From an uncultured Bacilli bacterium (GTDB taxonomy: Bacteria; Bacillota_I; Bacilli_A; RF39; UBA660), in assembly GCA_934096125.1 (NCBI GenBank), contig CAKOLB010000004.1, positions 55,117 through 119,116 on the forward strand: a stretch of DNA of 64,000 nucleotides, in the 5' to 3' direction. Both the position numbers and the translations under genes were made by a program. Below are positions 27,157 through 63,133 of this stretch, piece by piece (position 1 is the stretch's first letter; each line of letters begins with the position of its first letter). The notes below the pieces were generated by a model. The model searched no databases and was not told where the DNA came from. It saw only the letters and a program-made list of their open reading frames with translations.

Positions 27157-27807
27157 ATGAATAGATATTATTGGTTTGTAATTACTCTTTTTTTGCTAGT
27201 TTTAGTATTTTTTAGTGGCAAATCTGCTCATGCTAGTTTACCTCTTTTGGGAAGAACTATTGTGGTTGATGCAGGACATGGCGGGTTAGACCCTGGAGCT
27301 ATTTATAATGATATTTATGAGAAAGACATTACTTTAAAAATTGGAAAGTATTTAGAAGAGTATTTGACTAAAATGGGGGCAACAGTTGTGATGACAAGAA
27401 CTGATAATAATGATTTAAGTAATGGAACACAAAACAAACGAAAGAAAAAAGATTTTGATGAAAGAATTAAAATAATTAATGATAAAAAAATAGATATGTA
27501 TGTATCAGTTCATTTAAACTTTTTAAAAAATTCTAGATACTATGGTCCTCAAGTGTTTTATAATTATGATAACAAAGATTTGGCTGATTTCATTCAGAAA
27601 TATTTAAATAAACAACTTAAAGGGAAAAGAAATGTTAAAAGTATTCCAAGTAATACATATATGTATAAGAGATTAAAAAGGCCAGGATTTTTGATAGAAT
27701 GTGGGTTTTTATCAAACGCTGAAGAAAGAAATAAACTTACAAATAAAAGTTATCAACAAAAGTTTGCTCAGAGTTTAGCTGAAGCGATAAGTCATTATTA
27801 TAATTAA
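27157..27807 (+). CDS. cwlD: germination-specific N-acetylmuramoyl-L-alanine amidase CwlD (Amidase_3)
   Basis: Signal/TM N-terminus, VVDAGHGGLDPGA, SVHLNF, LIECGFLSN, and CwlD-like length. Confidence 0.8.
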   Translation: MNRYYWFVITLFLLVLVFFSGKSAHASLPLLGRTIVVDAGHGGLDPGAIYNDIYEKDITLKIGKYLEEYLTKMGATVVMTRTDNNDLSNGTQNKRKKKDFDERIKIINDKKIDMYVSVHLNFLKNSRYYGPQVFYNYDNKDLADFIQKYLNKQLKGKRNVKSIPSNTYMYKRLKRPGFLIECGFLSNAEERNKLTNKSYQQKFAQSLAEAISHYYN

Positions 27808-42200: not shown

Positions 42201-42247
42201 ATGAATGATAGAGCTTTAAAAAAGGTGGTTTTGGATGCCGGACATGG
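42201..42247 (+). pseudogene. split Amidase_3-LysM hydrolase gene, segment 1 of 3
   Basis: ATG 42201 encodes MNDRALKKVVLDAGHG. The frame then enters unrelated sequence and stops at TGA 42270-42272. Confidence 0.8.
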
Positions 42248-42269
42248 GAGATACTGTTATTCTACACAA
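42242..42269. repeat. attL of element 1 (core ACATGG plus P' arm TTATTCTACACAA)
   Basis: TTATTCTACACAA (42257-42269) is the exact inverted complement of TTGTGTAGAATAA at 50551-50563. Confidence 0.7.
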
Positions 42270-42317: not shown

Positions 42318-42345
42318 AAAGAGATATTTGAAAAAGTATCTCTTT
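42318..42345 (+). promoter_or_regulatory. perfect 9-bp inverted repeat upstream of mob (candidate oriT hairpin or insulating terminator)
   Basis: AAAGAGATA-N10-TATCTCTTT followed by TTGCATATT, 29 nt before the mob start. Confidence 0.3.
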
Positions 42346-42373: not shown

Positions 42374-43633
42374 ATGAGTTATGCAATATTTAGAAGTCAA
42401 CCAATAAATACACTACAAGATTTAGCGCAAATTGGTTCACACAATAAAAGAGAAAAGAAAGCTTATAAGAGCAATCCAGATATAAAATTAGATAGAAGTA
42501 AGGATAATATAGAATTAGTAAAATGTGCTGAAAAATATGTTAAAAGATTTTACGAATTAACTAAAGACTATAAAAAAGAACATGAAGAAAGACAAAAGAC
42601 AATGCGAGAAGATAGAAAAAAATCCTATTATAAAATGCTTAATGATGCTAGAAATGTAGTAGCAGATGAATTGTTATTTACAAGTGATAGTTTATTCTTT
42701 AAAGATAAAAGTAAGAAAGAAATATTAAGGTGGGCTAATACTTGTATGGATTTTGTTTATAATGATTTAGGTTATACTAAAGAACAGGTATTACATTCTA
42801 CTATTCATATGGATGAAAAAACACCACACATTCATTGTGTAGTGATTCCACTAGTTAAAAAATTAGATAAAAGAACTAATACAGAAAGATATACTATCTC
42901 AAAAAAGCAATATATCAAAAATAACGAGCATTTAAGTGAATTACAAGATAAATACCATAATAGATTAGTTAAGGCTGGTTTTGATCTAGAAAGAGGTTTA
43001 AAAGGCAGTACAGCAGAGAATATAAATATAAAAGAATTTAAAAAAATGACTAGAAGGTTAGATAAGTCATTAGAGAAAAGTACACTATTATTAAATGATG
43101 ATTATAATGACTTAAAAGTTAAATTAAATAAAAGTAAACCTACAATAACTGGCAAGGAAGTTAAAATAGATAAAGATACTTATCAAACATTAAATAAATT
43201 TATGAGTACGGCTAAAAGAATAATAGAAGATATTCCTAAAACACAATCAATGGTAAAAACTTTAGATGAGTATACCAAAATCTTTAGAAGTACGCAAAGA
43301 GAGAATATTCAATTAAAGAAAGAAGTAAATAGACTTGAATTAGAAAAAGAAGAAATCAAACAAGAAAATAATAGACTAGAAAATCTTATGTATAATTTAC
43401 TTCAAAGATTAAAAGATTTATTTAAAAAAATTCTTCATATAGGTACTGATAAAGAAAAAGATAATGTATCAAAAGAAATAAAGTATCATTATGATAATAA
43501 TTATTATAACGATTTAGATTTATGCTATATTTCTAAGGGAACAACTAAAGAAAGAGATATATTTGAACACATTGGTTATATCAAAAAAGGGTATAACAAA
43601 GAAAAAGAAGAAGATTTTGATATAAATAGATAA
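42374..43633 (+). CDS. mob: MobV-family (Mob/Pre) relaxase
   Basis: N-terminal HNKR motif, HMDEKTPHIHCVVIP (HxDExxPHxH) motif, and a coiled-coil C-terminal half. Confidence 0.8.
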   Translation: MSYAIFRSQPINTLQDLAQIGSHNKREKKAYKSNPDIKLDRSKDNIELVKCAEKYVKRFYELTKDYKKEHEERQKTMREDRKKSYYKMLNDARNVVADELLFTSDSLFFKDKSKKEILRWANTCMDFVYNDLGYTKEQVLHSTIHMDEKTPHIHCVVIPLVKKLDKRTNTERYTISKKQYIKNNEHLSELQDKYHNRLVKAGFDLERGLKGSTAENINIKEFKKMTRRLDKSLEKSTLLLNDDYNDLKVKLNKSKPTITGKEVKIDKDTYQTLNKFMSTAKRIIEDIPKTQSMVKTLDEYTKIFRSTQRENIQLKKEVNRLELEKEEIKQENNRLENLMYNLLQRLKDLFKKILHIGTDKEKDNVSKEIKYHYDNNYYNDLDLCYISKGTTKERDIFEHIGYIKKGYNKEKEEDFDINR

Positions 43634-43699: not shown

Positions 43700-45910
43700 A
43701 TGAACAAAGAAAATAAAATTATAAATTTTAAAAATGAAGATTCAAAGAAAAATATTTCTTTAGAATTAGATAAAAAAATGATTTTTATTTACGGTAAAAA
43801 TGGTAGTGGCAAAACAACTTTTTCTAGATCGAACGATTTGGATAAAAAATATGTATTTAATGAAGACTTCGTATATAAAAATGTTTATATAATAGACGCT
43901 GAAGGAGCAAAAATTGATTCAGGTGTTAAAAATAATTTTTCAGAGTTGCTTGTTGGAGAAGATGTTGTTCTATTAAAAGAAAAACAAAATAAATTAGAAG
44001 AAATATATAAAGAATTAAATACTAAAAGTAATGATAATGAAACATTTATCAATTCTAGTTTAGCAAGTAATGGTATTCCAAACAGTTATAATTTTTTAAA
44101 GGAAAAAGTTGATGAAACTTTTAATTATGATGAAACAAAAACAATCGAAGAACAAATGGAGATATATAAGAGCGATTTAGAATTGGAACAGACTATTACA
44201 AATGATAAAGAGTTAGAAATCAATGTGAATCAAATAAAGAAACATGAGAATATTAAATTATTAATAGAAAAAATAAAAAAAATACCATTGTTAGAGGAGT
44301 TTCTTTTTTCAGAGGATTATCCAATACTATTGAAACTTAATTCTGATTTAGACATTATTAATACAAATATTCAAAACATTAAAAGTTTAGAAGAGTTAGG
44401 GAAAAAGAAAAGGGTAGAAAAAAATGATTTTTCTATTATAAGAGATTGTATAACATTACAAGAAAAAGTGGGAACTGATATTTGTGTATTATGTGGTAAT
44501 ACTGAAATTAAAGCAGGTATAGAAGAATGGAAGAAAATATTTCAGGACAAAACAGTAAATTTAAAAACGAAAGTAATATCAGAATTAAATGATATTCTAA
44601 AAAATTGTAAAACTATTATTGATGATAGAAAAGTATATGAACCTGTTGCACCTGGTACTATTAACAATATAATAATATTTATAGGAATTATAGAAAACGC
44701 TTTAAAAGAAGTGAATTTAGGCAATGTTTTAGAAATTAAATATCAAGAAATCGTAAGAGAAAAATATACTGAAGACATTATTCAAAAGTATAAAACTATT
44801 GCAAATTACGTATTAAAGAAATATAAAGATAAAACTATTTTCTTAAATTCATCACTTAAAAGTGTAGGTGGTAAAATAAAAGTAATAAAAGAAAACATAG
44901 AAAAAATTTTAAAGCTAAATGCTGACACCCATAAAGAATCAATAAACTCTATTCTTAAAGATTTGGGATTAGATAAAGAAATAACCGTTGGTGTTGATAG
45001 ACTAGGCGGTAAAATAAAATATTCACTAAATGTAGTTAATAACAATTTATCAAAATTGAGTGATGGGCAAAAACATAAATTAGCTTTGGCAATATTTTTA
45101 AATACTATTAAAAATGAAGATTTAAAAGGTAAAACAGTTGTGTTTGACGACCCTGTTGTTGCGCTTGATGAACTAGGATATCACTTTTTTAAACAATATG
45201 TTATAAAAAATATAATGAATAATCCTAACATAGAAGAATGCCCTAATCTTATTATATTAACTCACAACTTTAATTATCTTTATATACAAACAAGTAATAT
45301 AATAATTAGTCCTAATTTACAAGACAATACAAAAATATTGAAATTAAATTCAGATGGATTTAAAGAATTAGATTTTGAATTGTTTAAATTAGATGATATC
45401 GCATTATTTAAAAAATGCTTAGATAATATTAAGTATGAAGATGAATTGATAGACTTAAGTAGTTTATACAATAAAGTTTTTAGAGAATTTTTGGATTTAA
45501 AACTAAGAATACTTGGAAATCCATTAAATGGTAATCCAGCAGAAGAAATAAAGATAATAGTATCTGATGAACAAACAAGAAAATTGTTGCAGGAACAAAG
45601 TAATAAGTTAAGTAGTTATTCAAAAAATAAAAATATAACAATAGAAGAATCGAAAGAAGGTTTTTGCTTATTATCAGATATGCTAAAGACAATAGGGTTT
45701 GATGAATATATTCTGCCTCAAAACATTGATTCAATTAAAAATATTGTAAAGAGGGAAGAAATAATTTATTCAGATATATTTTATATTATTCATGAAATAG
45801 CAAATATTTTAAGAAATGAAGATAATAAATATAAAAATTATATAAATTATTTAAATCATCCAAGAATATCATTTACTAAAAATATGATGTCAACATCTAT
45901 GGATGCATAG
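43700..45910 (+). CDS. AAA_13 / RloC-PrrC-like ABC-type ATPase with zinc-hook insert (putative anticodon nuclease)
   Basis: Walker A GKNGSGKTT and a long K/E-rich coiled insert with CVLC (CxxC). Signature LSDGQKHKLA, Walker B VVFDDPVVALDE, and H-loop LTHN. The ~200-aa C-terminal domain has FREFLD and YLNHPR. Start at ATG 43700 behind GGAGG. Confidence 0.55.
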   Translation: MNKENKIINFKNEDSKKNISLELDKKMIFIYGKNGSGKTTFSRSNDLDKKYVFNEDFVYKNVYIIDAEGAKIDSGVKNNFSELLVGEDVVLLKEKQNKLEEIYKELNTKSNDNETFINSSLASNGIPNSYNFLKEKVDETFNYDETKTIEEQMEIYKSDLELEQTITNDKELEINVNQIKKHENIKLLIEKIKKIPLLEEFLFSEDYPILLKLNSDLDIINTNIQNIKSLEELGKKKRVEKNDFSIIRDCITLQEKVGTDICVLCGNTEIKAGIEEWKKIFQDKTVNLKTKVISELNDILKNCKTIIDDRKVYEPVAPGTINNIIIFIGIIENALKEVNLGNVLEIKYQEIVREKYTEDIIQKYKTIANYVLKKYKDKTIFLNSSLKSVGGKIKVIKENIEKILKLNADTHKESINSILKDLGLDKEITVGVDRLGGKIKYSLNVVNNNLSKLSDGQKHKLALAIFLNTIKNEDLKGKTVVFDDPVVALDELGYHFFKQYVIKNIMNNPNIEECPNLIILTHNFNYLYIQTSNIIISPNLQDNTKILKLNSDGFKELDFELFKLDDIALFKKCLDNIKYEDELIDLSSLYNKVFREFLDLKLRILGNPLNGNPAEEIKIIVSDEQTRKLLQEQSNKLSSYSKNKNITIEESKEGFCLLSDMLKTIGFDEYILPQNIDSIKNIVKREEIIYSDIFYIIHEIANILRNEDNKYKNYINYLNHPRISFTKNMMSTSMDA

Positions 45911-46068: not shown

Positions 46069-46103
46069 AAAAAGACTGACAAAAATTAATTGTCAGTCTT
46101 TTC
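46069..46103. terminator. bidirectional hairpin terminator
   Basis: AAAGACTGACAA-N7-TTGTCAGTCTTT perfect 12-bp stem flanked by A and T runs. The stop of the minus-strand XRE gene lies in the loop. Confidence 0.65.
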
Positions 46104-46361
46104 TGATGGAATATCATCAAATAGTTGTCTGATGTCTATTCCTAAAGCATCAGCAAATTTACCTATGGTTTCTAATGTTGGAGTTTTATCAATGCTTAAG
46201 CATTCTAAATCTCGAACATATCCATGAGTCAGTTCAGTTAAATCAGCTAATTCTTGAAGTGTATAACCACGTATAAGTCTGTATTTTCGAATGTTTTTTC
46301 TAACTTGAATAGATAAAATTGTTTTTGAATATCTTCTCATAGAAGTTATACACCTCCTCAC
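46086..46361 (-). CDS. XRE-family HTH transcriptional regulator
   Basis: HTH region LIRGYTLQELADLTELTHGYVRDLE. 91 aa. Confidence 0.75.
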   Translation of the reverse strand: MRRCITSMRRYSKTILSIQVRKNIRKYRLIRGYTLQELADLTELTHGYVRDLECLSIDKTPTLETIGKFADALGIDIRQLFDDIPSEKTDN

Positions 46362-47364: not shown

Positions 47365-47904
47365 TTATAGGTTTATTCTATCATCAGGTAATTTTGAGTA
47401 ATCATATTTTTCAGCACACATTTCTAAATCTTCGTAAATAGAGGTTAATTGTGCTAATATTTTTTCGGGTGGAAGTAATTCTTTATAATAATCATAATCT
47501 TTAAGTAAAAGCATCATTTGGAATATTCTTGTTCTGCAATCAGCAACTTTAGTTCTTTTCTCATAAGAATCTTCTAATAAATCCAATTGAGATTCTCTAT
47601 ATTGTTTTACTAATTCCTTTATATTTTTAGGAGTTTTATGTTTTGAAGTGTCTTTGAAACTATCTAGAATATCACTATAACCAGCAGTAGTTAAAAGAAA
47701 TTCTAAACTTATTTCTAATACTTCAGATAAACTTCTTAACATATCTATATCTGGTTTTTTAATATTACCTTTTTCAAGTTCATTATATGTAGAGTGATGT
47801 GTATTGATTAAACGAGCTACTTTTCTTTGAGAGTAGCCTTTTTTTGTTCTAGCAGTCCTTAATATTTTACTTAATTCTTCAAGATTAGCATTATTATTTT
47901 CCAT
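47365..47904 (-). CDS. XRE-family HTH regulator with C-terminal extension (element repressor candidate)
   Basis: HTH region KKGYSQRKVARLINTHHSTYNELEKGN. Divergent from the HTH_36-like ORF across an operator-bearing intergenic region. Confidence 0.7.
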   Translation of the reverse strand: MENNNANLEELSKILRTARTKKGYSQRKVARLINTHHSTYNELEKGNIKKPDIDMLRSLSEVLEISLEFLLTTAGYSDILDSFKDTSKHKTPKNIKELVKQYRESQLDLLEDSYEKRTKVADCRTRIFQMMLLLKDYDYYKELLPPEKILAQLTSIYEDLEMCAEKYDYSKLPDDRINL

Positions 47905-48937: not shown

Positions 48938-50533
48938 ATGAGACTAAGAGTTGGTATTTATGGGAGGTTATCACAAGAGGATATAGATAAGATAAACAAA
49001 GAAGATGAAAGTGAAAGTATCCAAAATCAAAAAAGAATGTTATTAGAGTATGCTTTAAAAAATGATTGGGATGTAGTTGATATTTATATTGATGAAGATT
49101 ATTCAGGTGCTGGAGTTTATAGACCAGAGTTTGAGAGAATGCTAAAAGATTGTGAAAATGGAAAACTAGATATAGTTTTATGTAAGAGTCAATCAAGATT
49201 CTCGAGAGATATGGAAATAATTGAAAGATATATAAATAACAAATTTAAAGAATGGAATGTTAGATTTATTAGTTTAGTAGATAATATAGATACTGATAAT
49301 AAATCTAATAAGAAATCTATTCAAATATTAGGACTAACTAATGAATGGTATTTAGAAGATTTATCAGATAACATTAAAAGAACAATTAGGAATAAAAAAG
49401 AGTCTGGACAATTTACTGGTTCATTTGCTCCCTATGGTTATTTAAGAAGTGAAGAAGATAAACACAAATTAGTTATTGATCCTATTGCTTCAATCATTGT
49501 TAAAAAGATATTTGAAATGTATAAACAAGGTAATGGTTATACTAAAATAGCAACTTATTTGAATGATACTAATGTTCCTAGTCCTTATGAACACAAAAAA
49601 GCAAGTGGTAGTAAATTTGTATGTGGAAATGTTGGAAAGGAAAAATCATATTGGTATTCAGATACAATTGCTAAAATCTTAAAAGATGAAGTATATATTG
49701 GAAATCTAGTACAAGGAAAAACAAGGCATATAAGTTATAAAAATAAAAAATCAGTTCCTGTTCCTAAAGAAGATTGGATAATTGTTAAAAACACACACGA
49801 ACCTATAATAGATGAAGATACTTGGAATATAGTTTCTGCTAAATTTAAAGGTAGGACAAAGCCAAGTAAATCTGGGGAAATTCATATGTTTACTAAAAAG
49901 GTTTATTGTGATTGTTGCAAAAAAATATTTTATAATGGTTATTCTAAATCAGGAAATGGGAACAAGCATTATTATTTAACTTGTAAGTCTAGAAAATCAG
50001 GGGTGTTTTGTGAAAATAATCTATCTATTAGAGTAGATAAATTAAAAGACTTTATCCTTAATGAGATTAATGAATATATCAAAGTTTATCATAATTCTAA
50101 AGCTTTAAATGAGAAATACCAAAAATTAAATACTAAGAATAATAAAAATGAGATTCAAGAACAAATTAAAACTTTGGAAAAACAACAAACTGAATTAGAA
50201 AAATCACAAAGTAAAAAGAATTCTTATTTAAGAAAATTATATGAAGATAGAATAGAGGGTTTCATTACTGATGAGCAATACAAAGCTTTTAGTAAAGACT
50301 ATGATGATGAATTAAATGAATTGCAAAACAGAATTCAATTAATAAAAGATGAAATCACTCTCTTAAATCAAAGGCACAGTGATATGATTGATAGAGATAA
50401 AATATTTAATAAATATAAATCTATAAAGGAATTAGATAGAAGTATATTAGATGATTTTATAGAAAAAATATATATCGGTGCAGTAGATAAAGAAACGAAT
50501 GAACGAGAAATAAATATTGTATGGGCCATATAA
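48938..50533 (+). CDS. large serine recombinase (resolvase domain, recombinase domain, zinc ribbon, coiled coil)
   Basis: VGIYGRLSQED catalytic-Ser motif, SIQNQ, YIDEDYSG, and SRFSRD. Cys cluster CDCC...C...C. C-terminal coiled coil with FIEKIYIG...REINIVW (DUF4368-like). Start at ATG 48938 behind GGAGG. Confidence 0.9.
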   Translation: MRLRVGIYGRLSQEDIDKINKEDESESIQNQKRMLLEYALKNDWDVVDIYIDEDYSGAGVYRPEFERMLKDCENGKLDIVLCKSQSRFSRDMEIIERYINNKFKEWNVRFISLVDNIDTDNKSNKKSIQILGLTNEWYLEDLSDNIKRTIRNKKESGQFTGSFAPYGYLRSEEDKHKLVIDPIASIIVKKIFEMYKQGNGYTKIATYLNDTNVPSPYEHKKASGSKFVCGNVGKEKSYWYSDTIAKILKDEVYIGNLVQGKTRHISYKNKKSVPVPKEDWIIVKNTHEPIIDEDTWNIVSAKFKGRTKPSKSGEIHMFTKKVYCDCCKKIFYNGYSKSGNGNKHYYLTCKSRKSGVFCENNLSIRVDKLKDFILNEINEYIKVYHNSKALNEKYQKLNTKNNKNEIQEQIKTLEKQQTELEKSQSKKNSYLRKLYEDRIEGFITDEQYKAFSKDYDDELNELQNRIQLIKDEITLLNQRHSDMIDRDKIFNKYKSIKELDRSILDDFIEKIYIGAVDKETNEREINIVWAI

Positions 50534-50550: not shown

Positions 50551-50580
50551 TTGTGTAGAATAAACATAACCTCCACATGG
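50551..50580. repeat. attR of element 1 (P arm TTGTGTAGAATAA plus core ACATGG)
   Basis: Lies 18-47 nt after the recombinase stop. The arm is the inverted repeat of 42257-42269, and the core is identical to 42242-42247. Confidence 0.7.
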
Positions 50581-50806
50581 TGGTGATGATCCGGGGACTA
50601 TTGCAAATGGAATAACTGAAAAAGATTATACTTTGAAGATAACAAATTATATTCACAACAGATTAGATGAACTTGGAGTGCCAAATAAATTATCGAGGAG
50701 TACTGATGAGACTTTAGATGCCAGTAGTAGGCCACAGAGAATACAAAGTCTTTATGGAAATGGGAGTGATGTGATTGTTGTGTCTAATCACATAAATGCA
50801 GGGGGA
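50581..50806 (+). pseudogene. split Amidase_3-LysM hydrolase gene, segment 2 of 3
   Basis: Continues in frame from segment 1: (G)GDDPGTIANGITEKDYTLKITNYIHNRLDELGVPNKLSRSTDETLDASSRPQRIQSLYGNGSDVIVVSNHINAGG. It then diverges and stops at TAA 50816-50818. Confidence 0.8.
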
Positions 50807-50828
50807 CAGGACGCGTAATATGTGGTTA
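50785..50828. repeat. attL of element 2 (B arm TAATCACATA, core GGA, P' arm TATGTGGTTA)
   Basis: TAATCACATA at 50785-50794, GGA at 50804-50806, and TATGTGGTTA at 50819-50828. The last is the inverted form of TAACCACATA. Confidence 0.6.
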
Positions 50829-50928
50829 ATCGTAGGCGCAGTGTATAACTTTAATAAGCTTCTTATTTTACTGTATATGATGGTATAATAGATATATCAA
50901 ATAACTTTAAAGATGAGAGGTGAAAAGA

Positions 50929-51840
50929 ATGTTATATATAACTGGTGATACTCATGGAGATTTTTATAGATTTGGTCATTTAGGATTAAATGAAGGTGAT
51001 ATTATGATTATCTTAGGGGATGTGGGTATTAATTATTACTTAGATGAATATGATAAAAAGTTAAAGGAAAGATTAAAAAGATATAATTTTAAATTTTTCT
51101 GTATTCAAGGTAATCATGAAAAAAGACCAGAAAATATTTCAAGTTACCACGAAGTGGAAATGTTTGGCGGTAAAGTATTTGTAGAAGATGAATATCCTAA
51201 TTTAGTATTTGCTAAAAATGGAGAACTTTATAATATTGATGACAAAAGTATTTTAGTAATAGGTGGAGCTTATTCTATTGATAAAGATTATAGAATAAGT
51301 AAAGGATATCCTTGGTTCAAAGATGAACAATTAACTGAGAAAGAGAGACTAAATATATTGGACGAGTATTCTGGTAAACATGTGGATATAATTTTATCTC
51401 ATACTTGTCCATTAAGATATGAACCTAAAGAAAGCTTTAAATTAAGTTTGCCACAGATTGCGATAGATAAATCTATGGAGTATTTTCTAAATGAAGTAGA
51501 GCAAAGAGTAGATTATGGTAAATGGTATTGTGGACATTATCATTTAGAAAAAATTGTGGACAAGTTAGAGTTTATGTTTGGAAGAATTAAAAGTGTTGAC
51601 ACAGGAGAATTTATTCCTAAATATGATTTCCATAATGGCTACAAAATAGTTAGAGATGTATGTAGTCAAAAAGATTATAAATATTGTCCTGAATGTAAAG
51701 GAGATAATATAATTATAGAAAAAGGTGAAGGACATAATATTAATGGTTTAGATTTTATTGCTATCATTTGTAATGATTGTAAAAAAGTTTATGGATTTAA
51801 TGATGTTAATTATAAACGTAATTGTCCTAAAGAATTGTAA
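50929..51840 (+). CDS. calcineurin-like metallophosphoesterase with C-terminal zinc ribbon
   Basis: GDTHGD, GDVG, and QGNHE motifs, plus SHTCP. C-terminal CPECKG...CNDCKK. Confidence 0.7.
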   Translation: MLYITGDTHGDFYRFGHLGLNEGDIMIILGDVGINYYLDEYDKKLKERLKRYNFKFFCIQGNHEKRPENISSYHEVEMFGGKVFVEDEYPNLVFAKNGELYNIDDKSILVIGGAYSIDKDYRISKGYPWFKDEQLTEKERLNILDEYSGKHVDIILSHTCPLRYEPKESFKLSLPQIAIDKSMEYFLNEVEQRVDYGKWYCGHYHLEKIVDKLEFMFGRIKSVDTGEFIPKYDFHNGYKIVRDVCSQKDYKYCPECKGDNIIIEKGEGHNINGLDFIAIICNDCKKVYGFNDVNYKRNCPKEL

Positions 51841-51914
51841 CTGTGTTTACCAAATTTTAAAATTTATGCTATAATTAAGATGTAATAATTATTTGACTAA
51901 GTGTGGTGAGTAGT

Positions 51915-52550
51915 ATGGAGTATAGAAAATATTCATTTAGACATGCAGAAGATATTTTTAAAAACGATAAGGATTTTACTTATTTATGGAATGAAATTTT
52001 GGAAGTGCTTGATAGTATAAGCGATGATGATTTAATTAATGAATTTAACATTGAAACTAGAAAAGCAAAAAGCATTTCCGAAGCAATTAATAAATTAATT
52101 GCAAAAAGGCTAAGTGAAAAAGGATGGCATGAACAAAGTTACATTTTTGCTGACCCTGATTATTCTGATAATAAAGGTACATGGAGATTAGATTTTGCAA
52201 AAGATAATATTGCAATTGAAGTTGCATTTAATCATGGAGGAAATGTATCTTGGAATTTAATTAAGCCAGTATTATCTAGTGAATTAAATCATGTTAAAAA
52301 GGCAATACAAACTCAAGCTGGCGTTGTCATAACAGCAACTGATGCTATGAAAAAAGCCGGTGGATTTGATAATGCTATCGGTACCTATGAAAAATATGTT
52401 GAATATCTAAAACCATTAAATAATTTGTTAACCACACCTATGATGATAATAGGATTAGAACCACCAAAAAAGTTTACTATTGAGCAGAAAAAAGAAGATG
52501 GTAAAATGGTTGGACATGTTAAATTAAAAGAAGAAGATAATAACTTTTAG
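51915..52550 (+). CDS. BglII/BstYI-fold restriction endonuclease-like protein (orphan)
   Basis: WRLDFAKDNIAIEVAFNH...SSELNH...GVVITAT...TYEKY...MMIIGL parallels the BglII core DIDFGKRDTLVEVQFSN...SELFH...IIITK...LVGL as I recall it. The D-x8-E spacing is kept, but the E-V-Q glutamine position is Ala. Confidence 0.55.
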   Translation: MEYRKYSFRHAEDIFKNDKDFTYLWNEILEVLDSISDDDLINEFNIETRKAKSISEAINKLIAKRLSEKGWHEQSYIFADPDYSDNKGTWRLDFAKDNIAIEVAFNHGGNVSWNLIKPVLSSELNHVKKAIQTQAGVVITATDAMKKAGGFDNAIGTYEKYVEYLKPLNNLLTTPMMIIGLEPPKKFTIEQKKEDGKMVGHVKLKEEDNNF

Positions 52551-52601
52551 ACTTACAATTTTGTGAGTCTTTTTATTTTGAAAAAGAAAGGATACGATAT
52601 T

Positions 52602-52895
52602 ATGAAAATAAAAACAAATAGAGAAGAGGGTTATGTAGTTATGGGTAACTATCATCTAAGAGATAAAAAATTAAGCTTAAAAGCAAAAGGACTATTATCT
52701 ATAATGTTGTCATTACCAGACACATGGTGTTATTCCACGCTAGGATTATCTAGTATTTGTGTTGAAAGCAGGGATACAGTTAGAAATATATTAAAAGAAT
52801 TAAAGGAAGCAAAATATTTAAAGGTAGTTGAAAATAGAGATGAAAATGGTAGATTTAATTATGAATATGTAATTTATGAAAAACCCTATATGTAA
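52602..52895 (+). CDS. HTH_36-type winged-helix protein
   Basis: LSLKAKGLLSIMLSLPDTWCYSTLGLSSICVESRDTVRNILKELKEAKYLKV. Same family pattern as the ORF at 48135. Start set to ATG 52602. Confidence 0.55.
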   Translation: MKIKTNREEGYVVMGNYHLRDKKLSLKAKGLLSIMLSLPDTWCYSTLGLSSICVESRDTVRNILKELKEAKYLKVVENRDENGRFNYEYVIYEKPYM

Positions 52896-53069
52896 TAATC
52901 CATGGTATCATTACGGTTACATGGATTTCCGTATGCGGTTATTTATTCACAATAAATTATTTAGAAGTAATTAATAAAACAAATAGATAAAGTCGATAAA
53001 ACCTCTATCGATTCAAAAAAAGAGAAGGTTTTATAGTATAATTTCTCTTTTCATTGGTTAATTTAGCTA

Positions 53070-54467
53070 TTAAATAAATTCTTTTAATATATTTTCTAAG
53101 TATTTACTATTTAACCAAAAACAATGCTTTGTATATTCAGCTAATCCTGTTAACTTGTCTTTTACAGGTAATGGCAAAGTATCTTTTGAGTCTCTAGCAT
53201 GTGGTCTAACATGGCAAACTCCATTATCCCCGATTCCTGGAAAGTTAGTATTTCTTTTACCCATATTATCAATTGATTTAATAATATTTCCAGATAAAAT
53301 AATGTTTTTTGTATTATTCCACATATTTTTCACTTCATTTTCAAGTGTTAGTTCTGGCATGTTCCATAATTTTATACCACTAAAGATATAATCATTATCT
53401 TTCTTTTTAAATATAAAGAACATGTATTTTGTAGTTTCTAATTCTTCTTTTAACTTTGATTCTTCCCAATCAGTTGTTTTAAAATCCATATAATTGAAAT
53501 ATGGAAAAGGCATAGATTCTTTAATGTGTCCATTTTCTTCAACTCTGATTGTTCTTGGAACTATATTTGCTTTTTGGAATTCATCAGTATCACGAAGTCT
53601 AGATTTAACATTAAACATTCTAGCTATCAGTATTCCATTTAAATTTTTTGCATTAGAATCAATATTAAATTCATGCATTAATTGTTTTTGAGTTTTCCCC
53701 TGATATTTCTTGGTAACATTTTCAACAAATTCAGTAAATGATTCACCAGCATTTTTAATAACTTTTTCAACATCTTCATAATTTCCAATATATTTTCTAA
53801 CGAGTCCTGTCATATAAGAAGTTTTTAAACAAAATGCTCTTTGCTTTGCTTTAATTGATGAAAAAGGTTGTTCTCTAACGGATTTTTTATTTGCTCCTTT
53901 TGTACAAGCACCAAGATACATTGTATCTGCTTCTGATATCTCATGGGCTTTTCCTTGTTTAATTTTATTAATTATTGTTTCCCAATCCTTAATAATTATT
54001 GGTAAATCTTCTTTTGGAAATGTAAATAATAACTCGTGTGTTATTCTTAAATCATTTTTATTTTTGTGAGGTTCGTAAAAATACCAAATTATTTGAATTT
54101 TATTATTTTTAAACCAAAAATGACTAGAGTAAAATTCATTTTTATATTCATCCATATAATTAATTATGTTTAGAACAAGTCTTTCTTTAGCTGATAAAGT
54201 ATTGTCTTTGTTTTTCTTATACGGTGTAACTTTAAGTTCTATTCCCGCATCAATAAAGTCAGGCGCAGATATTGAATTAATGTTGTATCCATATACATTA
54301 GTTTCAAATAAATGACCAAAGAAAGCTTTATTAAACTTTTCATCATCTTTGTTATATTCATTGTTATAAATAGTTGTTACATTCATATTATTTAATTCTT
54401 TAAAAGTTTTTCCTAATGCACTTTTAGCTAAAATTTGAATTTCATCTTTTGTGTAACTTTTTGCCAT
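53070..54467 (-). CDS. MutH/Sau3AI-family type II restriction endonuclease
   Basis: N-terminal MutH-like core APDFIDAGIELKVTP (D...E-x-K). The size fits the two-domain Sau3AI type. Divergently paired with a C5 methyltransferase. Confidence 0.7.
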   Translation of the reverse strand: MAKSYTKDEIQILAKSALGKTFKELNNMNVTTIYNNEYNKDDEKFNKAFFGHLFETNVYGYNINSISAPDFIDAGIELKVTPYKKNKDNTLSAKERLVLNIINYMDEYKNEFYSSHFWFKNNKIQIIWYFYEPHKNKNDLRITHELLFTFPKEDLPIIIKDWETIINKIKQGKAHEISEADTMYLGACTKGANKKSVREQPFSSIKAKQRAFCLKTSYMTGLVRKYIGNYEDVEKVIKNAGESFTEFVENVTKKYQGKTQKQLMHEFNIDSNAKNLNGILIARMFNVKSRLRDTDEFQKANIVPRTIRVEENGHIKESMPFPYFNYMDFKTTDWEESKLKEELETTKYMFFIFKKKDNDYIFSGIKLWNMPELTLENEVKNMWNNTKNIILSGNIIKSIDNMGKRNTNFPGIGDNGVCHVRPHARDSKDTLPLPVKDKLTGLAEYTKHCFWLNSKYLENILKEFI

Positions 54468-54636
54468 AAAAATTTCCTTTCGATCTTGTTTTTATCTCAA
54501 AAATAATTTAAAATATATATATAGTGTTGATCTTTTTAAAATATTATTTTATAATTAATATGTAAGAAGTTGATCTTTTCGCTTAAATATATTATAATAT
54601 ATTTAAATATGTTTAACAATTATTAGGAGGCGTTTT

Positions 54637-55875
54637 ATGCAAAAAACAGTAGTAGAATTATTTGCCGGTGTTGGTGGATTTAGATGTGGATTAAATAATG
54701 TAAAATTAAAAGATAATAAAGTTATTGAAAAAGGTAATTGGAATTTTGTGTGGGCGAATCAATGGGAACCTTCTACTAAAACACAAGAGGCTTTTGAATG
54801 CTATTCAAAAAGATTTGGAAAGGATGATGTTAGTAATGTAGATATATTTCAAGTAAATAAAAAAGAGATACCTAATCATACTTTATTAGTTGGTGGTTTT
54901 CCATGTCAAGATTATTCTGTTGCACAGACACTATCTAATAGCAAAGGAATTGATGGAAAAAAAGGTGTTTTGTGGTGGGCAATTGCAGATATATTAAAAG
55001 TTAAGAAACCTCCATTTGTGTTTTTAGAAAATGTTGATCGCTTACTTCTTTCGCCAGCGAGTCAAAGAGGCAGAGATTTTGGAATAATTTTGAGAAGTTT
55101 TTATGAAAATGGATATGATTTAGAATGGCGAGTTATCAATGCGGGAGAATATGGATTTCAACAAAAACGTAGGAGAATTTATATAATTGCATATCACAAA
55201 TCAACTAAATATTGTAAGAAAATGAGAAAAATTGATAAGAAAAATATATTACTTAAGGAAGGTATTTTCATAAAACAGTTTCCTGTAAAAGAGAAAGAGT
55301 TTAACTCAAATGTATCAAGTATTTCAGAATATAAAGATTTAGTCGATGTTAGTGATAATTTTAAAAACCAATTTTATAATTCTGGAGTTATGATAAATGG
55401 TGAAATATATACTGCCAAATTAGAACATAATTGCGATAGTGTATATCAGTTAGGCAATTTAATAGAAACTAATAAGGTTGATGAAAAATATTTCCTTTCA
55501 AAAGATAGAATTGAGAAATTTAGAATATTAAAGGGAAGTAAAAGAATACCTAGAAAAAAGCCAAATGGAGATGATTACATTTATTCTGAAGGTTCAATGC
55601 CATTTCCTGATAATCTAAATGTTCCTGCTAGAACAATGCTGACTTCAGAAAGTGGAACTAGCAGAATGACACATGTTATAGAGGACTATAGAACTAAAAA
55701 ATTAAGATTTTTAACACCATTAGAGTGTGAAAGAATTAATGGATTTCCAGATAATTGGACAAATACTGGGATGAGTGATAAGAAACGATATTTCATGATG
55801 GGTAACGCTTTAGTAGTAAATGTTGTTGAAAAAATAGGGATTGAATTGGAAAAAATAGTAGAAATGGAAGAGTAA
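54637..55875 (+). CDS. DNA (cytosine-5)-methyltransferase, Sau3AI-type (GATC specificity inferred)
   Basis: Motif I ELFAGVGGF, motif IV GGFPCQDYS, motif VI LENVDRLL, motif VIII QQKRRRIYIIA, and motif X GNALVV. WANQWEPS and SPASQRGRDF resemble M.Sau3AI-like enzymes. Confidence 0.85.
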   Translation: MQKTVVELFAGVGGFRCGLNNVKLKDNKVIEKGNWNFVWANQWEPSTKTQEAFECYSKRFGKDDVSNVDIFQVNKKEIPNHTLLVGGFPCQDYSVAQTLSNSKGIDGKKGVLWWAIADILKVKKPPFVFLENVDRLLLSPASQRGRDFGIILRSFYENGYDLEWRVINAGEYGFQQKRRRIYIIAYHKSTKYCKKMRKIDKKNILLKEGIFIKQFPVKEKEFNSNVSSISEYKDLVDVSDNFKNQFYNSGVMINGEIYTAKLEHNCDSVYQLGNLIETNKVDEKYFLSKDRIEKFRILKGSKRIPRKKPNGDDYIYSEGSMPFPDNLNVPARTMLTSESGTSRMTHVIEDYRTKKLRFLTPLECERINGFPDNWTNTGMSDKKRYFMMGNALVVNVVEKIGIELEKIVEMEE

Positions 55876-55984
55876 ATGAAAAAATGTTAAAATTTGGTAA
55901 TTTATCTAAATAGTGTTATAATTTTATACAGAAGATATGCAGTATTTGTCTTTTTAAGATGGATACTGCATTTTTTTGAAGTAG

Positions 55985-56950
55985 GTGGTAGTATTGGATT
56001 CACTTAATTATGAAGTTTTTAAAAAAATAAAGAAATATTATAATGATAATTGCAAACCTTTAATTTTTGTTGGAGAAAAATTATTATCGCAGAATAACAA
56101 ATGTAAAATGTATTTTTGTGATGTTGATTTAAATCAAGAAAAAGAAAATTATAGAAAAGTTTTTCAAGAATATTTGGCACTTTATGTTAGAAATCATGAT
56201 TTGCTAAAATATTATGATAAGATTATAAAAAGTGAAACAGAAGATGAAATTTCAGAAGCTTTAATTTATTATGGAAATGATTTGTGGAATAATACCGTAT
56301 TGATAACTACAACTACACCAGAGACTTTAGGGATATATGGAGAAGCCATTAATGATTTTTATTTAAATATTGTTAAGAATGAAAATATAATTATCACTTA
56401 TTCAGCAAAAAGGGGGTATGGTGAACGTAATATAAAAGGGGTAGATGTAGTTGCATGTACTTGGAAAAAAGATAATCTTGTACTAATATTTTCTGAGTGT
56501 AAATTTGTCGAATCAATATATAAGGCGTCGTGTGGTTTATATAATGATATAAAGGGAACTCAATATGAATTGGCACATATAAGTAAAGATTATATAAACG
56601 GATATTCTACTTATATTGTTGATAATGCTCATTCAATTTTTGCAGAGAGTAATAATTCAGATAAAATTATAGATGTTTTGGACAAATTGAATAGTAGGAT
56701 AATAAATGGAAACAAGGCGATAGATGTGTTTAATGAATTAAACATAAAAATTCAATTTAATTTCTTTGCAATTTACTGTGATAATAAATTTACACCAGAT
56801 GAAAGACAAATAATGTTTGAAAAAGTATATAATGCTTTTTATGAAAATGTAAAATTAACAGGTATTAAAAATTATGATATGGAAATTGTGTATATACCTA
56901 TTAAAAATACAAGCTCTGTGGTAAAGGAATGTATGAGACAATGGAATTGA
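55985..56950 (+). CDS. HamA-like (DUF1837-type) PD-(D/E)xK nuclease candidate, first gene of a Hachiman-like pair
   Basis: 321 aa, with GVDVVACTWKKDNLVLIFSECKF giving a D...E-x-K arrangement. Overlaps the downstream helicase gene by 22 nt. Confidence 0.5.
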   Translation: MVVLDSLNYEVFKKIKKYYNDNCKPLIFVGEKLLSQNNKCKMYFCDVDLNQEKENYRKVFQEYLALYVRNHDLLKYYDKIIKSETEDEISEALIYYGNDLWNNTVLITTTTPETLGIYGEAINDFYLNIVKNENIIITYSAKRGYGERNIKGVDVVACTWKKDNLVLIFSECKFVESIYKASCGLYNDIKGTQYELAHISKDYINGYSTYIVDNAHSIFAESNNSDKIIDVLDKLNSRIINGNKAIDVFNELNIKIQFNFFAIYCDNKFTPDERQIMFEKVYNAFYENVKLTGIKNYDMEIVYIPIKNTSSVVKECMRQWN

Positions 56951-59322
56951 CACGAAATACAATTGTAAAGAAAATAAATTTATTTTCAATGGAAAGGAAT
57001 AATAAAGAATTAATAAATCTACTATGTGATATTTTAGAAAGTAAAAATTACATGGATAATTATGATCTTATTTTAATTATAATAAATATTGCCGAACTTT
57101 ATGGTTATCAAGAATTTTTTAATAATTTTGATGCAAATAGTATACCTAAATATAACGTGCATGCAATATCTAATGATATTAGAAAAAATCTATATAAAAG
57201 CAAAAAAGGTAATAATATATATTATAATTCTGGACAATTATCTTTATTAAAAGAATTATCACTATATGATAAGCTTTTTATATCAGCTCCCACGTCATTT
57301 GGTAAAACCAGTTTAGTTTTAGAGCATATAGCAATGAATAACTCAATATATAAAACTATTATTTTTTTAGCTCCAACTAATGCATTAGTAGAAGAATTGT
57401 ATCTAAAATTTTTAAAATTAAATAAAGAATGTAATTTAAATTATGATGTAATAACAATGCCAAAAAATAAAAATAATAATACAATATGGATATTAACACC
57501 AGAGAAATTTTTACTTTTGGTTGAAGAAAAAAGTATAGATTTTGATTTGATAGTTATGGATGAGGCTTATAAAATTGAAAATGAAGAATCAATTGATAGA
57601 AAAGATATTTTAAATTCTAGGTCAAGCAAATATAGGAAAGTAATGGAATATATGGCTAATTCTAATTCGAAGATTATATTTTTATCTCCATATACTTATA
57701 ATAAGGCGCCATCTATGACAAGATTCTTAAAAAAATATAGTATCAAGGATATTGACAGGAATATTAATTATGTAAAAAAAGACATAATAGATATTTATGA
57801 TAGCAAAAGTTATAAAAGTAATTTTTCCAATAGTATATTTAGTATTAAAAAAGGTGATTCTGGGATTAAAAAAGCAATGGCAGCTGTTCCCTATTTATCT
57901 GATAATACAATTATATATGTAAAATATCCAAGTGAGGCAATAAAAGTTTTAGAATTAATGCCTAATGAAAAAGCAAGTATAGATAATGAAAGATTTAAAA
58001 AATTTTTGAACCATTTAAAAGAAAATTATTTATTTGAAGACAGCAATTGGTATATTATAGATGCTCTAGAAAAGGGAATTGGCATATATGTATCACCTAT
58101 TCCTCGATATATAAAAAAAGAAATAATATATTTATTTAATAAGGGAATAATAAAAAAACTTATAGTTACAACTGCATTTGCTGAAGGAGTTAATAGTTCA
58201 GCTAAGAACATAATTATAACAAATAGAATAACAGGATCTAATAAAAAACTAACTAATTTGGATATATTGAATTTAAGTGGTAGAGCAGGCAGATTTGGTG
58301 TATATAGCAAAGGAAAAGTTTTTTCTGCAGTTGAAGAAGTAAGTGATATTTTAAGAAAATCATCTGAAAATGGAGTAATTATAAATAATCCTAATTACGA
58401 ATTAGCAAGTGATATTATACCTAGAACTGATTATGAAATCGATATGATAGATGATTATCTATTAAATGAAGAAGAAAAAAATATAAAGGAAACCACAAAA
58501 AAAAGGCAATTAAATTTTAATTTGACCAACGATGATTTAAATATAGCTTTATCAATTGCAAATGAAATAAAAATCGATGTATATTCATATTTTTTTGAAA
58601 CAATTAACAATGGAAAAATTCAAGATATAAGATTTAATAATATTAAAAATTTATTGTCTACAGAGAAAAATGATATTATAAAATCAATTACATTTATTTT
58701 TAACGAATTAAAAAATGCAGATATTCCAATAGTTTCAGATTTTGGTGATATTAATCCATTTAATAGTAAAGGTGATTTTATTTGGGGCATTTTTTACGGA
58801 ATCCACTCTTCAGGAAATATTAGAGATGTTTTGAAATCAAGAAAAGGCTTTATTTTAAAACAGTTAAGTGAAATTGAAAAAATATTAAATTTAAAACTTA
58901 AAAATTTTAATAATAAAGAAATAGAAAAAATATTACGTGAGTACGATAAAAAATGGATATACGATTATTTAACTAAAGGTGAAATTGATGATGCAAAACT
59001 ATATAATGGTGCATTTAAATTTATATCAAACATAATTGAATATAGAATACCATTTTATATTGGATTGTATATATCAGTTTTTAAAATGTTTTGTAGAAAG
59101 AATAATTTAAATTATGATTTTAATTTTGATATTGTTGAAATATCTACATCATTAGAAAATAAAAATATAGAAAAAAAGTATTCTGATATGTTGGAATTTG
59201 GCATACCATTAGATACAATCAAAAAGATAAATAAATTTAAAAATGATAATAATATTTTTGAAATATTAGATGATTATGAAAAAATTATGTTAAGTGAATA
59301 TAATTACTATTTTGATAAATAA
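56929..59322 (+). CDS. HamB-like SF2 (Ski2/Hel308-like) helicase
   Basis: Motif I SAPTSFGKTS, Ia LAPTNALVEE, II VMDEAYK, V TTAFAEGVN, and VI LSGRAGRFG. 797 aa with a long C-terminal domain. Confidence 0.6.
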   Translation: MYETMELTRNTIVKKINLFSMERNNKELINLLCDILESKNYMDNYDLILIIINIAELYGYQEFFNNFDANSIPKYNVHAISNDIRKNLYKSKKGNNIYYNSGQLSLLKELSLYDKLFISAPTSFGKTSLVLEHIAMNNSIYKTIIFLAPTNALVEELYLKFLKLNKECNLNYDVITMPKNKNNNTIWILTPEKFLLLVEEKSIDFDLIVMDEAYKIENEESIDRKDILNSRSSKYRKVMEYMANSNSKIIFLSPYTYNKAPSMTRFLKKYSIKDIDRNINYVKKDIIDIYDSKSYKSNFSNSIFSIKKGDSGIKKAMAAVPYLSDNTIIYVKYPSEAIKVLELMPNEKASIDNERFKKFLNHLKENYLFEDSNWYIIDALEKGIGIYVSPIPRYIKKEIIYLFNKGIIKKLIVTTAFAEGVNSSAKNIIITNRITGSNKKLTNLDILNLSGRAGRFGVYSKGKVFSAVEEVSDILRKSSENGVIINNPNYELASDIIPRTDYEIDMIDDYLLNEEEKNIKETTKKRQLNFNLTNDDLNIALSIANEIKIDVYSYFFETINNGKIQDIRFNNIKNLLSTEKNDIIKSITFIFNELKNADIPIVSDFGDINPFNSKGDFIWGIFYGIHSSGNIRDVLKSRKGFILKQLSEIEKILNLKLKNFNNKEIEKILREYDKKWIYDYLTKGEIDDAKLYNGAFKFISNIIEYRIPFYIGLYISVFKMFCRKNNLNYDFNFDIVEISTSLENKNIEKKYSDMLEFGIPLDTIKKINKFKNDNNIFEILDDYEKIMLSEYNYYFDK

Positions 59323-59333
59323 AATCATGTCCG

Positions 59334-59362
59334 TTGACTGTCCTATAAATTTATGGTAAAAT
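59334..59362 (+). promoter_or_regulatory. near-consensus sigma-A promoter in the hamB-to-59637 intergenic region
   Basis: TTGACT (59334-59339), 17-nt spacer ending in TGG, then TAAAAT (59357-59362). Confidence 0.5.
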
Positions 59363-59636
59363 GGTAATATAGGATAAGTGTAAGAGATGCAAATTTATGA
59401 GAGGATTTTCCCTCTTTTTTTGTGTCTTTAAAAAAAATTATCTTTTTGAAAGAAAGGTAAATTTTATCTAAAATATTCTAAACTGTCGGAGACTATTAGT
59501 GGGTTTTAGGGATATTCCCTAACAAGCTAGATGGGTGTGTATACACCATGCTTGATATATTATATTACACGGGTATGTAACCTCAAAATAGGATTTAATG
59601 GTAATCTGAAATGTGGTATGAAATGAAAGGAGAAAT

Positions 59637-60209
59637 ATGGAATTTAAGTCAATGGAGAAGTGGCGTGTTTTACAGAAGTTTAAAATTAGCGAAAAACAGT
59701 ATAAGAGATTAGTGAAAAGATTAAAAAGAAGACATCCTAATGAAAGATGGATTGATGAACATTTTGCTCAAAATGGTGAAAGAGTAGTATATCTAAAATT
59801 AGAATTTGTAGAATGGATAGAAGAAGTTTATTTAAATAACAATCTATTTTATTTAGATGCTGAAATTGTTTTCTTTAAAAAGCAAATATTAAGACTAGAA
59901 GATGAATTAAATTTTCCTCATAGTGGGTTTGAATATGAAGATATATCTTTAAAAGATTTAAGGGAGTATTTTAATAAGAGTAAAGATGTGATAGGTGTTG
60001 CAATAAATAGAATGGAAAAGAGAAATGATAAATCATTCAAGTATATAAAAGATGCTAAAGTTATGATTAATAAAGAAGGCGTTAAATGGTTAAGTGAAAA
60101 CTATTTCCGTAAAGATTATTTAAAAAAGTTAGAATTTTATAAATTAGAACTTCAAAATGTTAAGAGAAAAAGAAATAGATTAAAAGAATATAGTATTTTC
60201 TATTACTAA
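59637..60209 (+). CDS. hypothetical basic protein (190 aa), element-encoded
   Basis: GGAG RBS before the ATG. K/R-rich N-terminus (KQYKRLVKRLKRRHPNERW) and a K/R-rich C-terminal tail. No family recognised. Confidence 0.5.
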   Translation: MEFKSMEKWRVLQKFKISEKQYKRLVKRLKRRHPNERWIDEHFAQNGERVVYLKLEFVEWIEEVYLNNNLFYLDAEIVFFKKQILRLEDELNFPHSGFEYEDISLKDLREYFNKSKDVIGVAINRMEKRNDKSFKYIKDAKVMINKEGVKWLSENYFRKDYLKKLEFYKLELQNVKRKRNRLKEYSIFYY

Positions 60210-60405: not shown

Positions 60406-60463
60406 GAGTTTGTGATATAATGATATTGCTTATTGAAGTTATACACGTTGGAAGGAGTAGTAA

Positions 60464-62195: not shown

Positions 62196-62218
62196 TAATC
62201 ACATAAAATCTTTCCGGA
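62196..62218. repeat. attR of element 2 (P arm TAATCACATA plus core GGA)
   Basis: TAATCACATA at 62196-62205 and GGA at 62216-62218. About 107-129 nt after the recombinase stop. Confidence 0.6.
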
Positions 62219-63133
62219 GGTGGCGATGGTGCAGAAGTAATATATGCTCTTAGAAATAATGATGTATTTGCAAGTAAAATTGCAAGAGAACTAGAGAGTG
62301 CAGGACAAAATATTAGAAAATATTATCAGAGAAGACTTCCAAGTAATCCAGCGAAAGATTATTATTATATAATGCGAGATACTCCTAATAATGAAACTGT
62401 AATTGTAGAGTATGGGTTTGCAGATTCTACTGGTGATGATGTTGAGCAGTTAAAAAATACTTGGGAAAACTTAGCAGAAGCGGTGGTTAAAGCAATTACT
62501 GAGTATGCTGGCGGTACTTATACACTTCCAAATACGGGCAATTATTACATAGTTAAAAGTGGTGATAGTCTATGGAGCATATCCAAAAAAACAGATGTTT
62601 CTATTGCCAAGATTAAGGAACTTAATAATCTTAAGAGTAATTTGTTAAGTATTGGTCAGAAATTAACATTACCACAAACAAGTGAAGATACCCCATCGCT
62701 AGATACATATATTGTTCAAAAAGGCGATAGTTTATATAAAATCGCTAACAAGTTTAATACTACTGTTGATAACTTAAAACTTATTAACAATCTTCAAAGC
62801 AATAATTTAGCTATAGGTCAAAAATTAAAGGTAAGTAGTAGTGAAAACAAATACACAGTGCAAAAAGGTGATACACTATACAGCATTGCCACTAAATTTT
62901 CTGTTAGTGTAGATTCATTAAAAAACGCTAATAATTTAGTTAGTAACACAATTGCCGTTGGTCAATCCTTAATTATCCCAGAACAAAAAACAACTAAAAC
63001 TTATACGGTTCAAAAAGGCGATAATCTTTATAGCATAGCAAGGCGATATAATACGACTGTAAATACAATAATGTCTTTAAATAATCTAGCTTCAACTAAT
63101 TTAACTATCGGTCAAAAGCTACTTGTTCCGTAA
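62219..63133 (+). pseudogene. split Amidase_3-LysM hydrolase gene, segment 3 of 3 (end of the Amidase_3 domain plus four LysM repeats)
   Basis: The frame of ORF 62372..63133 is open upstream to 62216 and reads GGGDGAEVIYALRNNDVFASKIARELESAGQ...YYYIMRDT...VEYGFADS. Four Y-x-V-x-x-GD-(S/T/N)-L-(Y/W)-x-I-(A/S) LysM units follow. Confidence 0.8.
62543..63130 (+). repeat. four tandem LysM domain-coding repeats
   Basis: YYIVKSGDSLWSISKK..., TYIVQKGDSLYKIANK..., KYTVQKGDTLYSIATK..., TYTVQKGDNLYSIARR..., each ending in IGQKL or VGQSL. Confidence 0.85.

Follow-up and report, generated by a model that had tools for sequence, protein, structure and literature searches.

The window, that is, the whole stretch of 64,000 nucleotides that was analyzed, contains an Amidase_3-LysM gene in three pieces, and its state is explained by two insertions. 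Element 1 (8,333 bp from CA to CA) splits the gene at its DAGHGG codons, and element 2, about 11.4 kb in length (50804-62218), interrupts the same amidase at HINAGG codons located 230 nt 3' of element 1. The parts of the amidase gene and the features of element 1 are arranged as follows.

42201..42244, + strand: N-terminal fragment of the amidase (Amidase_3-LysM gene), MNDRALKKVVLDAGH
42218..42269, + strand: attL, composed of a B half-site from the host (42218-42242), CA (42243-42244) and a P' half-site from the element (42245-42269); the P' half-site is the 12-nt spacer TGGGAGATACTG plus the 13-nt arm TTATTCTACACAA
42243..50575, + strand: element 1, integrative mobilizable element, 8,333 bp CA to CA, with copies 99.1-100% identical in other amidase genes
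42374..43633, + strand: MobV (Mob_Pre) relaxase, 419 aa (Pfam Mob_Pre E=8e-28; NCBIfam MobV 109 bits, cut-off 100)
43700..45910, + strand: AAA_13 / ABC-type ATPase cargo, weakly matching PDC-S06, a candidate defence family
46086..46340, - strand: small HTH_3 regulator
47365..47904, - strand: HTH_3/HTH_19 regulator, 179 aa
48715..48846, + strand: conserved 43-aa ORF just 5' of the recombinase gene, alignable in five amidase-targeting lineages
48938..50533, + strand: large serine recombinase (LSR), 531 aa, with Resolvase, Recombinase, Zn_ribbon_recom and DUF4368 domains
50551..50602, + strand: attR, composed of a P half-site from the element (50551-50575), CA (50576-50577) and a B' half-site from the host (50578-50602); the P half-site is the 13-nt arm TTGTGTAGAATAA plus the 12-nt spacer ACATAACCTCCA
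50576..50806, + strand: middle fragment of the amidase, HGGDDPG...SNHINAGG, cut again by element 2
62216..63133, + strand: C-terminal fragment of the amidase, with the remaining catalytic domain and four LysM repeats

Element 1 has about nine ORFs, which also encode small membrane or zinc-ribbon proteins, and none of them is a type IV secretion gene. A MobV relaxase, an LSR and att sites without type IV secretion genes make it a canonical integrative mobilizable element. The Pfam scores of the LSR are 5.6e-27 for Resolvase, 4e-25 for Recombinase and 1.4e-07 for Zn_ribbon_recom, and in alignments its catalytic Ser motif, YGRLS, falls on YERLS in TnpX and on YTRVS in TP901-1. Its closest solved structures are TnpX, a C. 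difficile conjugative-transposon recombinase, and TP901-1 integrase; the N-terminal domain of TnpX is the second-best PDB match (E=1.5e-14), a comparison limited to the catalytic domain. The identical LSR protein occurs in 51 blocks of the public assembly collection. The small ORF upstream of the recombinase gene has counterparts in relatives (L102 9778-9909, L111 199-324, L113 2670-2804 and L119 9788-9925), where it encodes 43 to 45 aa with the motif FNEKLLKVILYLE and lies directly 5' of the recombinase gene in five lineages regardless of cargo; judging from this conserved position, its product could be a directionality factor or a regulator. A putative oriT hairpin with a 12-bp stem lies 5' of mob (~42318-42345), but its fold is not significant (z = -1.1), and no nick site was identified there. 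Promoter and terminator scans at the element ends and the junction gave nothing above shuffled expectation.

Joining the outer flanks of element 1 gives one Amidase_3 reading frame, in which MNDRALKKVVLDAGH is followed by GGDDPGTIANG... Intact homologues (70-74% identity) align with the rebuilt amidase from end to end, and no indel marks the element 1 junction; this colinearity is indicative of conservative recombination, with neither duplication nor loss of the target. A search for the intact gene gave only homologues of ~70-74% identity and the fragment 3' of element 2; no intact copy of the exact window amidase with >90% identity is on record, nor is an empty site for the strain. The window flanks carry chromosomal genes, among them GAPDH and ABC transporters (in relatives, rplM/rpsI neighbourhoods), and the genomes that match best, with LSRs 96-99% identical, are MAGs of uncultured gut Bacilli. 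Neither the phage nor the plasmid collections gave a megablast match to the region. The view of the window as a prophage with an interrupted endolysin was dropped, given the chromosomal flanks and the relatives among uncultured Bacilli MAGs.

The inner flank of attL consists of ACATGG (42242-42247), GAGATACTG (42248-42256) and TTATTCTACACAA (42257-42269), and that of attR consists of TTGTGTAGAATAA (50551-50563), ACATAACCTCC (50564-50574) and ACATGG (50575-50580). Together they rebuild a 52-bp attP of the form TTGTGTAGAATAA-N12-CA-N12-TTATTCTACACAA, in full TTGTGTAGAATAA-ACATAACCTCCA-CA-TGGGAGATACTG-TTATTCTACACAA; the predicted circle junction is TTGTGTAGAATAAACATAACCTCCACATGGGAGATACTGTTATTCTACACAA, and the predicted repaired site is GGTTTTGGATGCCGGACATGGTGGTGATGATCCGGGG. 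An earlier sequence-only reading of this DNA had proposed perfect 13-bp inverted arms for this attP, and every sequence it quoted lies where it had placed it, with the arms complementary at 13/13 positions. The half-sites are complementary at 19/25 positions, and the best symmetry axis of attP falls between the C and the A of CATGG. Perfect inverted repeats of at least 13 nt were obtained in 15 of 200,000 random pairs of 40-nt segments drawn from the window (28.5% GC), and a chance origin of the arms is unlikely. Two perfect arm copies exist within the window, those of attL and attR. A third copy at 10739, with one mismatch, was set aside as a chance match; no CATGG adjoins it.

Copies elsewhere, in many contigs from gut metagenomes, came to light through look-ups of the exact protein and pattern scans. 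Element 1 occupies 10 different amidase genes, with 90.6-100% DNA identity over the alignable parts, and a sister element (P0002; LSR 86% identical) occupies six further amidase genes. All of the resulting 16 attB sites, each in a distinct Amidase_3 gene, read GGN-CATGG-NGG and encode (I/V/L)D(A/P/S)GHGGxD(P/S/G)G, and their DNA is represented by nTnGATGCnGGn-CA-TGGnGGnnnTGATCCnGG. The recombinase gene is co-directional with the amidase in 16/16 cases (P ~3e-5 under random orientation). The window copy and the copy in locus L011, whose target is a cwlD-like amidase, differ by 1 nt in 8,338; such near identity between insertions in different amidases indicates very recent transposition, and by the same comparison the window copy is intact. 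Element 1 and the sister element have the same arms without any change, and their spacers vary (GAGATACTG versus GAGTTGCTG, and C/T in ACATAAYCTCC). The sister element (L102-L110) retains both end modules, one with mob and the other with regulator and recombinase, and in place of AAA_13 it carries DUF4160, an OLD/TOPRIM ATPase and a UvrD-like helicase (Gabija-like); the difference between the two is an exchange of cargo between conserved ends.

Two further sites were noted. An intact cwlD-like Amidase_3 gene within the window (27157-27807) contains an unoccupied attB-consensus site, GTGGTTGATGCAGGA-CA-TGGCGGGTTAGACCCTGG, with its CA at 27277-27278, and the equivalent sites are occupied in L003 and L005. 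In L015 (1-80), attR is followed by non-amidase sequence (CAGATAATCTTATGCACGGTGC...) of which only 49 nt are present and which loosely resembles a P' half-site; this flank may represent either insertion off target or an element in tandem.

The sites at 42218-42269 (attL) and 50551-50602 (attR) very likely belong to an active integrative mobilizable element of 8,333 bp that has its own DUF4368-type LSR and a 52-bp attP. In the proposed mechanism, attL and attR would be rejoined as the 52-bp attP upon excision, perhaps independently of a directionality factor, with each half-site presumably bound by one LSR subunit. The LSR would cut with a 2-bp stagger at CA, which is non-palindromic; in chromosomal Amidase_3 genes this CA opens the His codon of the zinc-binding motif DxGHGG and supplies two of its three bases. 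Strand exchange would be conservative, so that no sequence is duplicated or lost. The attB recognized consists of the codons of the conserved motif, GAT-GCN-GGN-CAT-GGN-GGN-NNN-GAY-CCN-GG, and an attB made of the coding sequence of a conserved motif gives entry to many paralogues of the amidase across many hosts, each time in a single orientation. Once excised, the circle may be mobilized by a helper conjugative system through the MobV relaxase.

Is this particular copy still active? The sequence-only reading had held that the element is intact and still a recombination substrate. Its first part is upheld by the single-nucleotide difference from the L011 copy; as to the second, the element 1 family is demonstrably mobile, and we infer from this that the window copy can be excised. 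No circle junction was found in the metagenome contigs, though nine contigs of that collection carry attR, nor was one found in the 123 loci; viral contigs likewise lack the junction, but attR is absent from them too, so that they are uninformative. Since circles are expected to be rare and seldom assembled, absence from contigs is weak evidence. An alternative is that the ends have stayed intact on a fixed remnant and that the window copy no longer excises, through a missing directionality factor or host signal or through a silent recombinase. The absence of both a circle junction among assembled contigs and an empty site for the strain would fit with this, as would the same insertion in several Hadza metagenome contigs (L002, L008, L009, L012 and L013), which points to stable inheritance. 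However, every ORF is intact, the recombinase protein is identical to that of copies at other sites, the near-identical L011 copy sits in a different gene, and the conserved small ORF, a candidate source of a directionality factor, is present; TnpX-type recombinases excise without such a factor (PMC5704250). A fixed remnant is thus unlikely.

A second alternative concerns the purpose of excision rather than its occurrence, and it is compatible with mobility. Like skin, SPbeta/SprA and the gin element in gerE, element 1 has an LSR at one end and interrupts a coding sequence that precise excision would rebuild in frame, so that it might be a gene-intervening element whose programmed excision, for example in sporulation, restores the amidase. 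Some of the targets are cwlD-like, sporulation genes are present in some hosts (SpoIIIAH, GerE and YlbD in L112), and serine-recombinase insertions in sporulation genes are known (PMC5595907, PMC5499854). Unlike those systems, element 1 encodes a relaxase along with defence-type cargo and has hit many amidase paralogues, the LysM type included, and nothing points to developmental control. Moreover, the window gene, itself of the LysM type, is broken a second time by element 2, meaning that excision of element 1 alone would not restore the amidase. A developmental role of this kind is distinctly unlikely.

Diverged recombinases, at 55-100% identity, retain the amidase target, and their att sites allow the anatomy to be compared. 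The attP of L112 (LSR 59% identical) is TTATTTGGATTTA-ATGGTACAGTCA-CA-TGGTAGCAACTG-TTATTCCAGATAA; in L119 (LSR 58% identical), attL is ...GATGCCGGG-CA-CGGCGGTAACGT-CTAAACCAAATAA and attR is ACATTTGGTTTAA-CCGATTCCACCC-CA-TGGGGGGAATGAC... Both retain the 13+12+CA+12+13 geometry with arms that differ from those of element 1, co-vary and are complementary at 10/13 positions. The left ends of the P0015, P0017 and L111/L026 lineages lie outside the contigs. For L111, L113 and L121, whose contigs likewise lack the left end, the P arms stand at the same distance from CA and show a TTTGG..TTAA-like pattern. The serine-integrase attP geometry proposed earlier is therefore supported by the complete LSR adjoining the site, by the 52-bp dyad itself and by its retention in diverged relatives.

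Some of these relatives differ in other respects. A TraG/VirD4-type coupling protein is encoded in L113, L116, L118 and L119 (LSR 55-58%, amidase target), and L119 has a Replic_Relax protein instead of MobV; with different transfer modules beside the same amidase-targeting LSR type, the integration module is what they have in common. In L026 (2119-2200; LSR 65% identical), the recombinase-proximal arm adjoins a cwlD-like N-terminus in reverse complement, so that the orientation is opposite to that of all other copies; one base is missing before CA, and the other end lies off the contig. A polarity flip of the nearly palindromic attP would explain this orientation. Recombinases of 46-50% identity from genome contigs proved unusable for covariation, as no amidases flank them. 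Four of the recombinases in this identity range (L051, L055, L062 and L082) abut, on their 3' side, codons of the ABC-ATPase signature and Walker B motif (QRVALIRTLA...LLLDEP), and another branch of the DUF4368 clade thus seems to target codons of a conserved protein motif as well.

The 16 sites also define where host sequence ends and element sequence begins. The base preceding CATGG is A, T or G in attL, as the third position of a host glycine codon, and A at every site in attR, and the base following CATGG is always G in attL and variable in attR. The variable base at 42242 is therefore host sequence and the constant A in attR element sequence; conversely, the constant G after CATGG in attL belongs to the element and the variable base in attR to the host. 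Accordingly, the core common to attL and attR in all copies is the 5-bp CATGG. The core ACATGG taken by the sequence-only reading stands for these five bases but not for its leading A, a sixth shared base in the window that is a coincidence of the host site. Since CATGG is shared by all copies, the exchange is confined to five bases.

Which dinucleotide within CATGG is exchanged? In serine integrases, as established from Bxb1 and phiC31, the central dinucleotide alone sets orientation, and the occurrence of all 16 insertions in one orientation excludes the palindromic AT as the crossover. In a register test on five attP sequences, complementarity was 77.6% at the proposed axis versus 31-49% when the axis was slid by 1-3 nt, and seven positions were changed on both sides of attP, five of them within the arms; with only three truly independent lineages among the five, the test is supportive and gives no statistical proof. 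In L119, attL reads GGG-CA-CGG and attR reads CCC-CA-TGG, so that their identity is exactly 2 bp, CA. This identity is the hallmark of a serine-recombinase crossover and cannot be squared with a 5-bp target duplication. For element 1 and its sister the matter is less direct, since attL and attR share five bases and sequence alone cannot choose among CA, AT, TG and GG; strand exchange in element 1 could then take place at TG or GG, with the arms offset from the cleavage centre. Against this, both the arm axis and the axis of the 19/25 half-site positions fall on CA, the register test loses its signal when the axis is moved by even a few nucleotides, and the L119 homologue has CA alone in common, with AT already excluded by the single orientation. 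A crossover at TG or GG is very unlikely, and the centre on CA proposed by the sequence-only reading holds for attP symmetry, for the register test and for L119; in element 1 itself, the crossover is probably at CA on the strength of the symmetry and of this homologue with a 58% identical recombinase. No dyad symmetry was found in attB at any axis (~25% complementarity), which makes attB uninformative on the crossover position, and no arm-like motif shifted 5 bp inward in the manner of A118 was seen in attB by inspection.

A DDE-type transposon, with the arms as 13-nt terminal inverted repeats and CATGG as a 5-bp target-site duplication, fits superficially through its inverted repeats near the ends and its 5-bp direct repeat, but it can practically be dismissed, given that element 1 has the LSR as its sole recombinase and no DDE transposase, that the repeats are subterminal, 12 nt from the exchange point, that insertion takes place at one specific motif in one orientation, and that the pentamers flanking L119 are unequal (CACGG versus CATGG), so that the repeat is not a duplication.

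Among known integrative mobilizable elements, those of the Tn4451 type have a MobV relaxase (TnpZ) together with a large serine recombinase (TnpX) whose substrates are 2-bp identities and which works without a directionality factor, and element 1 resembles Tn4451/Tn4453 of C. perfringens and C. difficile in its small size (6-9 kb), its MobV/Mob_Pre relaxase with a single LSR that appears to be of the DUF4368/TnpX-like branch, its 2-bp exchange core, the imperfect inverted repeats at its ends and the circular intermediate that is expected (PMC5704250). However, its core is CA, compared to GA at the ends and target of Tn4451, its cargo is an AAA_13 ATPase rather than catP, and its gene order differs, the recombinase gene being located at the right end and directed outward. 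The LSR, with 531 aa, is also shorter than TnpX (~707 aa). The circle junction of Tn4451 forms a promoter for the recombinase gene; in element 1, with the recombinase gene at the right end reading outward, the circle junction cannot supply one. In contrast to the loose specificity of Tn4451/Tn4453, element 1 and its sister are found at Amidase_3 DxGHGG codons in 16/16 complete sites. The CA core, the high target specificity and the different gene order place element 1 outside the Tn4451/Tn4453 family.

Element 1 shares with the phage LSR systems (Bxb1, phiC31, A118/LI and TP901-1) an attP of ~50 bp, dyad-symmetric outer motifs, a non-palindromic central dinucleotide, conservative and precise recombination, and the Resolvase, Recombinase and zinc-ribbon domains, but it is no phage, its LSR has a DUF4368 C-terminus, and its attB is without visible dyad symmetry. 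The DUF4368 domain marks a multi-targeting, TndX-like LSR clade (PMC10083194), and diverse LSRs with one conserved coding site, for example in a prolyl isomerase, are known (Durrant et al. 2022, PMC10083194). Like these cases and the streptococcal rumA-type elements (PMC5704250), element 1 inserts inside conserved coding sequence and disrupts the gene; unlike them, its target is a short catalytic-motif sequence common to many paralogues, so that one recombinase has many sites per genome and across genomes and is specific for a sequence while multi-targeting with respect to genes. No mention of an amidase target was found in the main text of PMC10083194 or the supplements consulted, nor in a further, limited selection of the literature.

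Taken alone, the attP reconstruction is ordinary, and the kind of element it describes is known; of more interest is that the amidase motif is targeted so consistently. The NHxNAGG motif, ~230 nt 3' of attR, is broken in 9/17 of the amidases bearing element 1 or its sister (L001, L002, L004, L018, L021, L024, L102, L103 and L108), and the inserts are of several types, which makes this motif a second hotspot for integration within the amidase family. On balance, we lean toward the view that the DUF4368 LSR clade (55-100% identical) homes to DxGHGG codons rather than to one gene, that separate, unrelated elements use HxNAGG, and that the amidases serve as double docking platforms for defence cargo. 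If true, a sequence-specific integrase would, much like a transposon, be able to reach all the amidase paralogues of many gut Firmicutes, and the defence cargo docked there would include AAA_13, Gabija-like, Hachiman and restriction-modification systems. Element 1 illustrates how a site-specific integrase can reach many targets by recognizing the codons of a conserved catalytic motif. For the host, such insertions mean the repeated inactivation of cell-wall amidase paralogues, coupled with the acquisition of defence genes. The sites also form a natural replicate set for an unstudied LSR, with 16 attB, four diverged attP with co-varying arms and a mapped crossover, which is the information needed for testing the LSR as an integration tool.

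Element 2 differs from element 1 in its gene content. It encodes a metallophosphoesterase, a BglII-like gene, a type II restriction enzyme, a cytosine methylase and Hachiman HamA/HamB, as well as an LSR of 541 aa (60464-62089) without DUF4368. Host sequence TAATCACATAAA recurs on the inner side of the attR of element 2, and the junction of this element is placed within ~3 nt in a GG(A) stretch, where a trial join gave one extra glycine.
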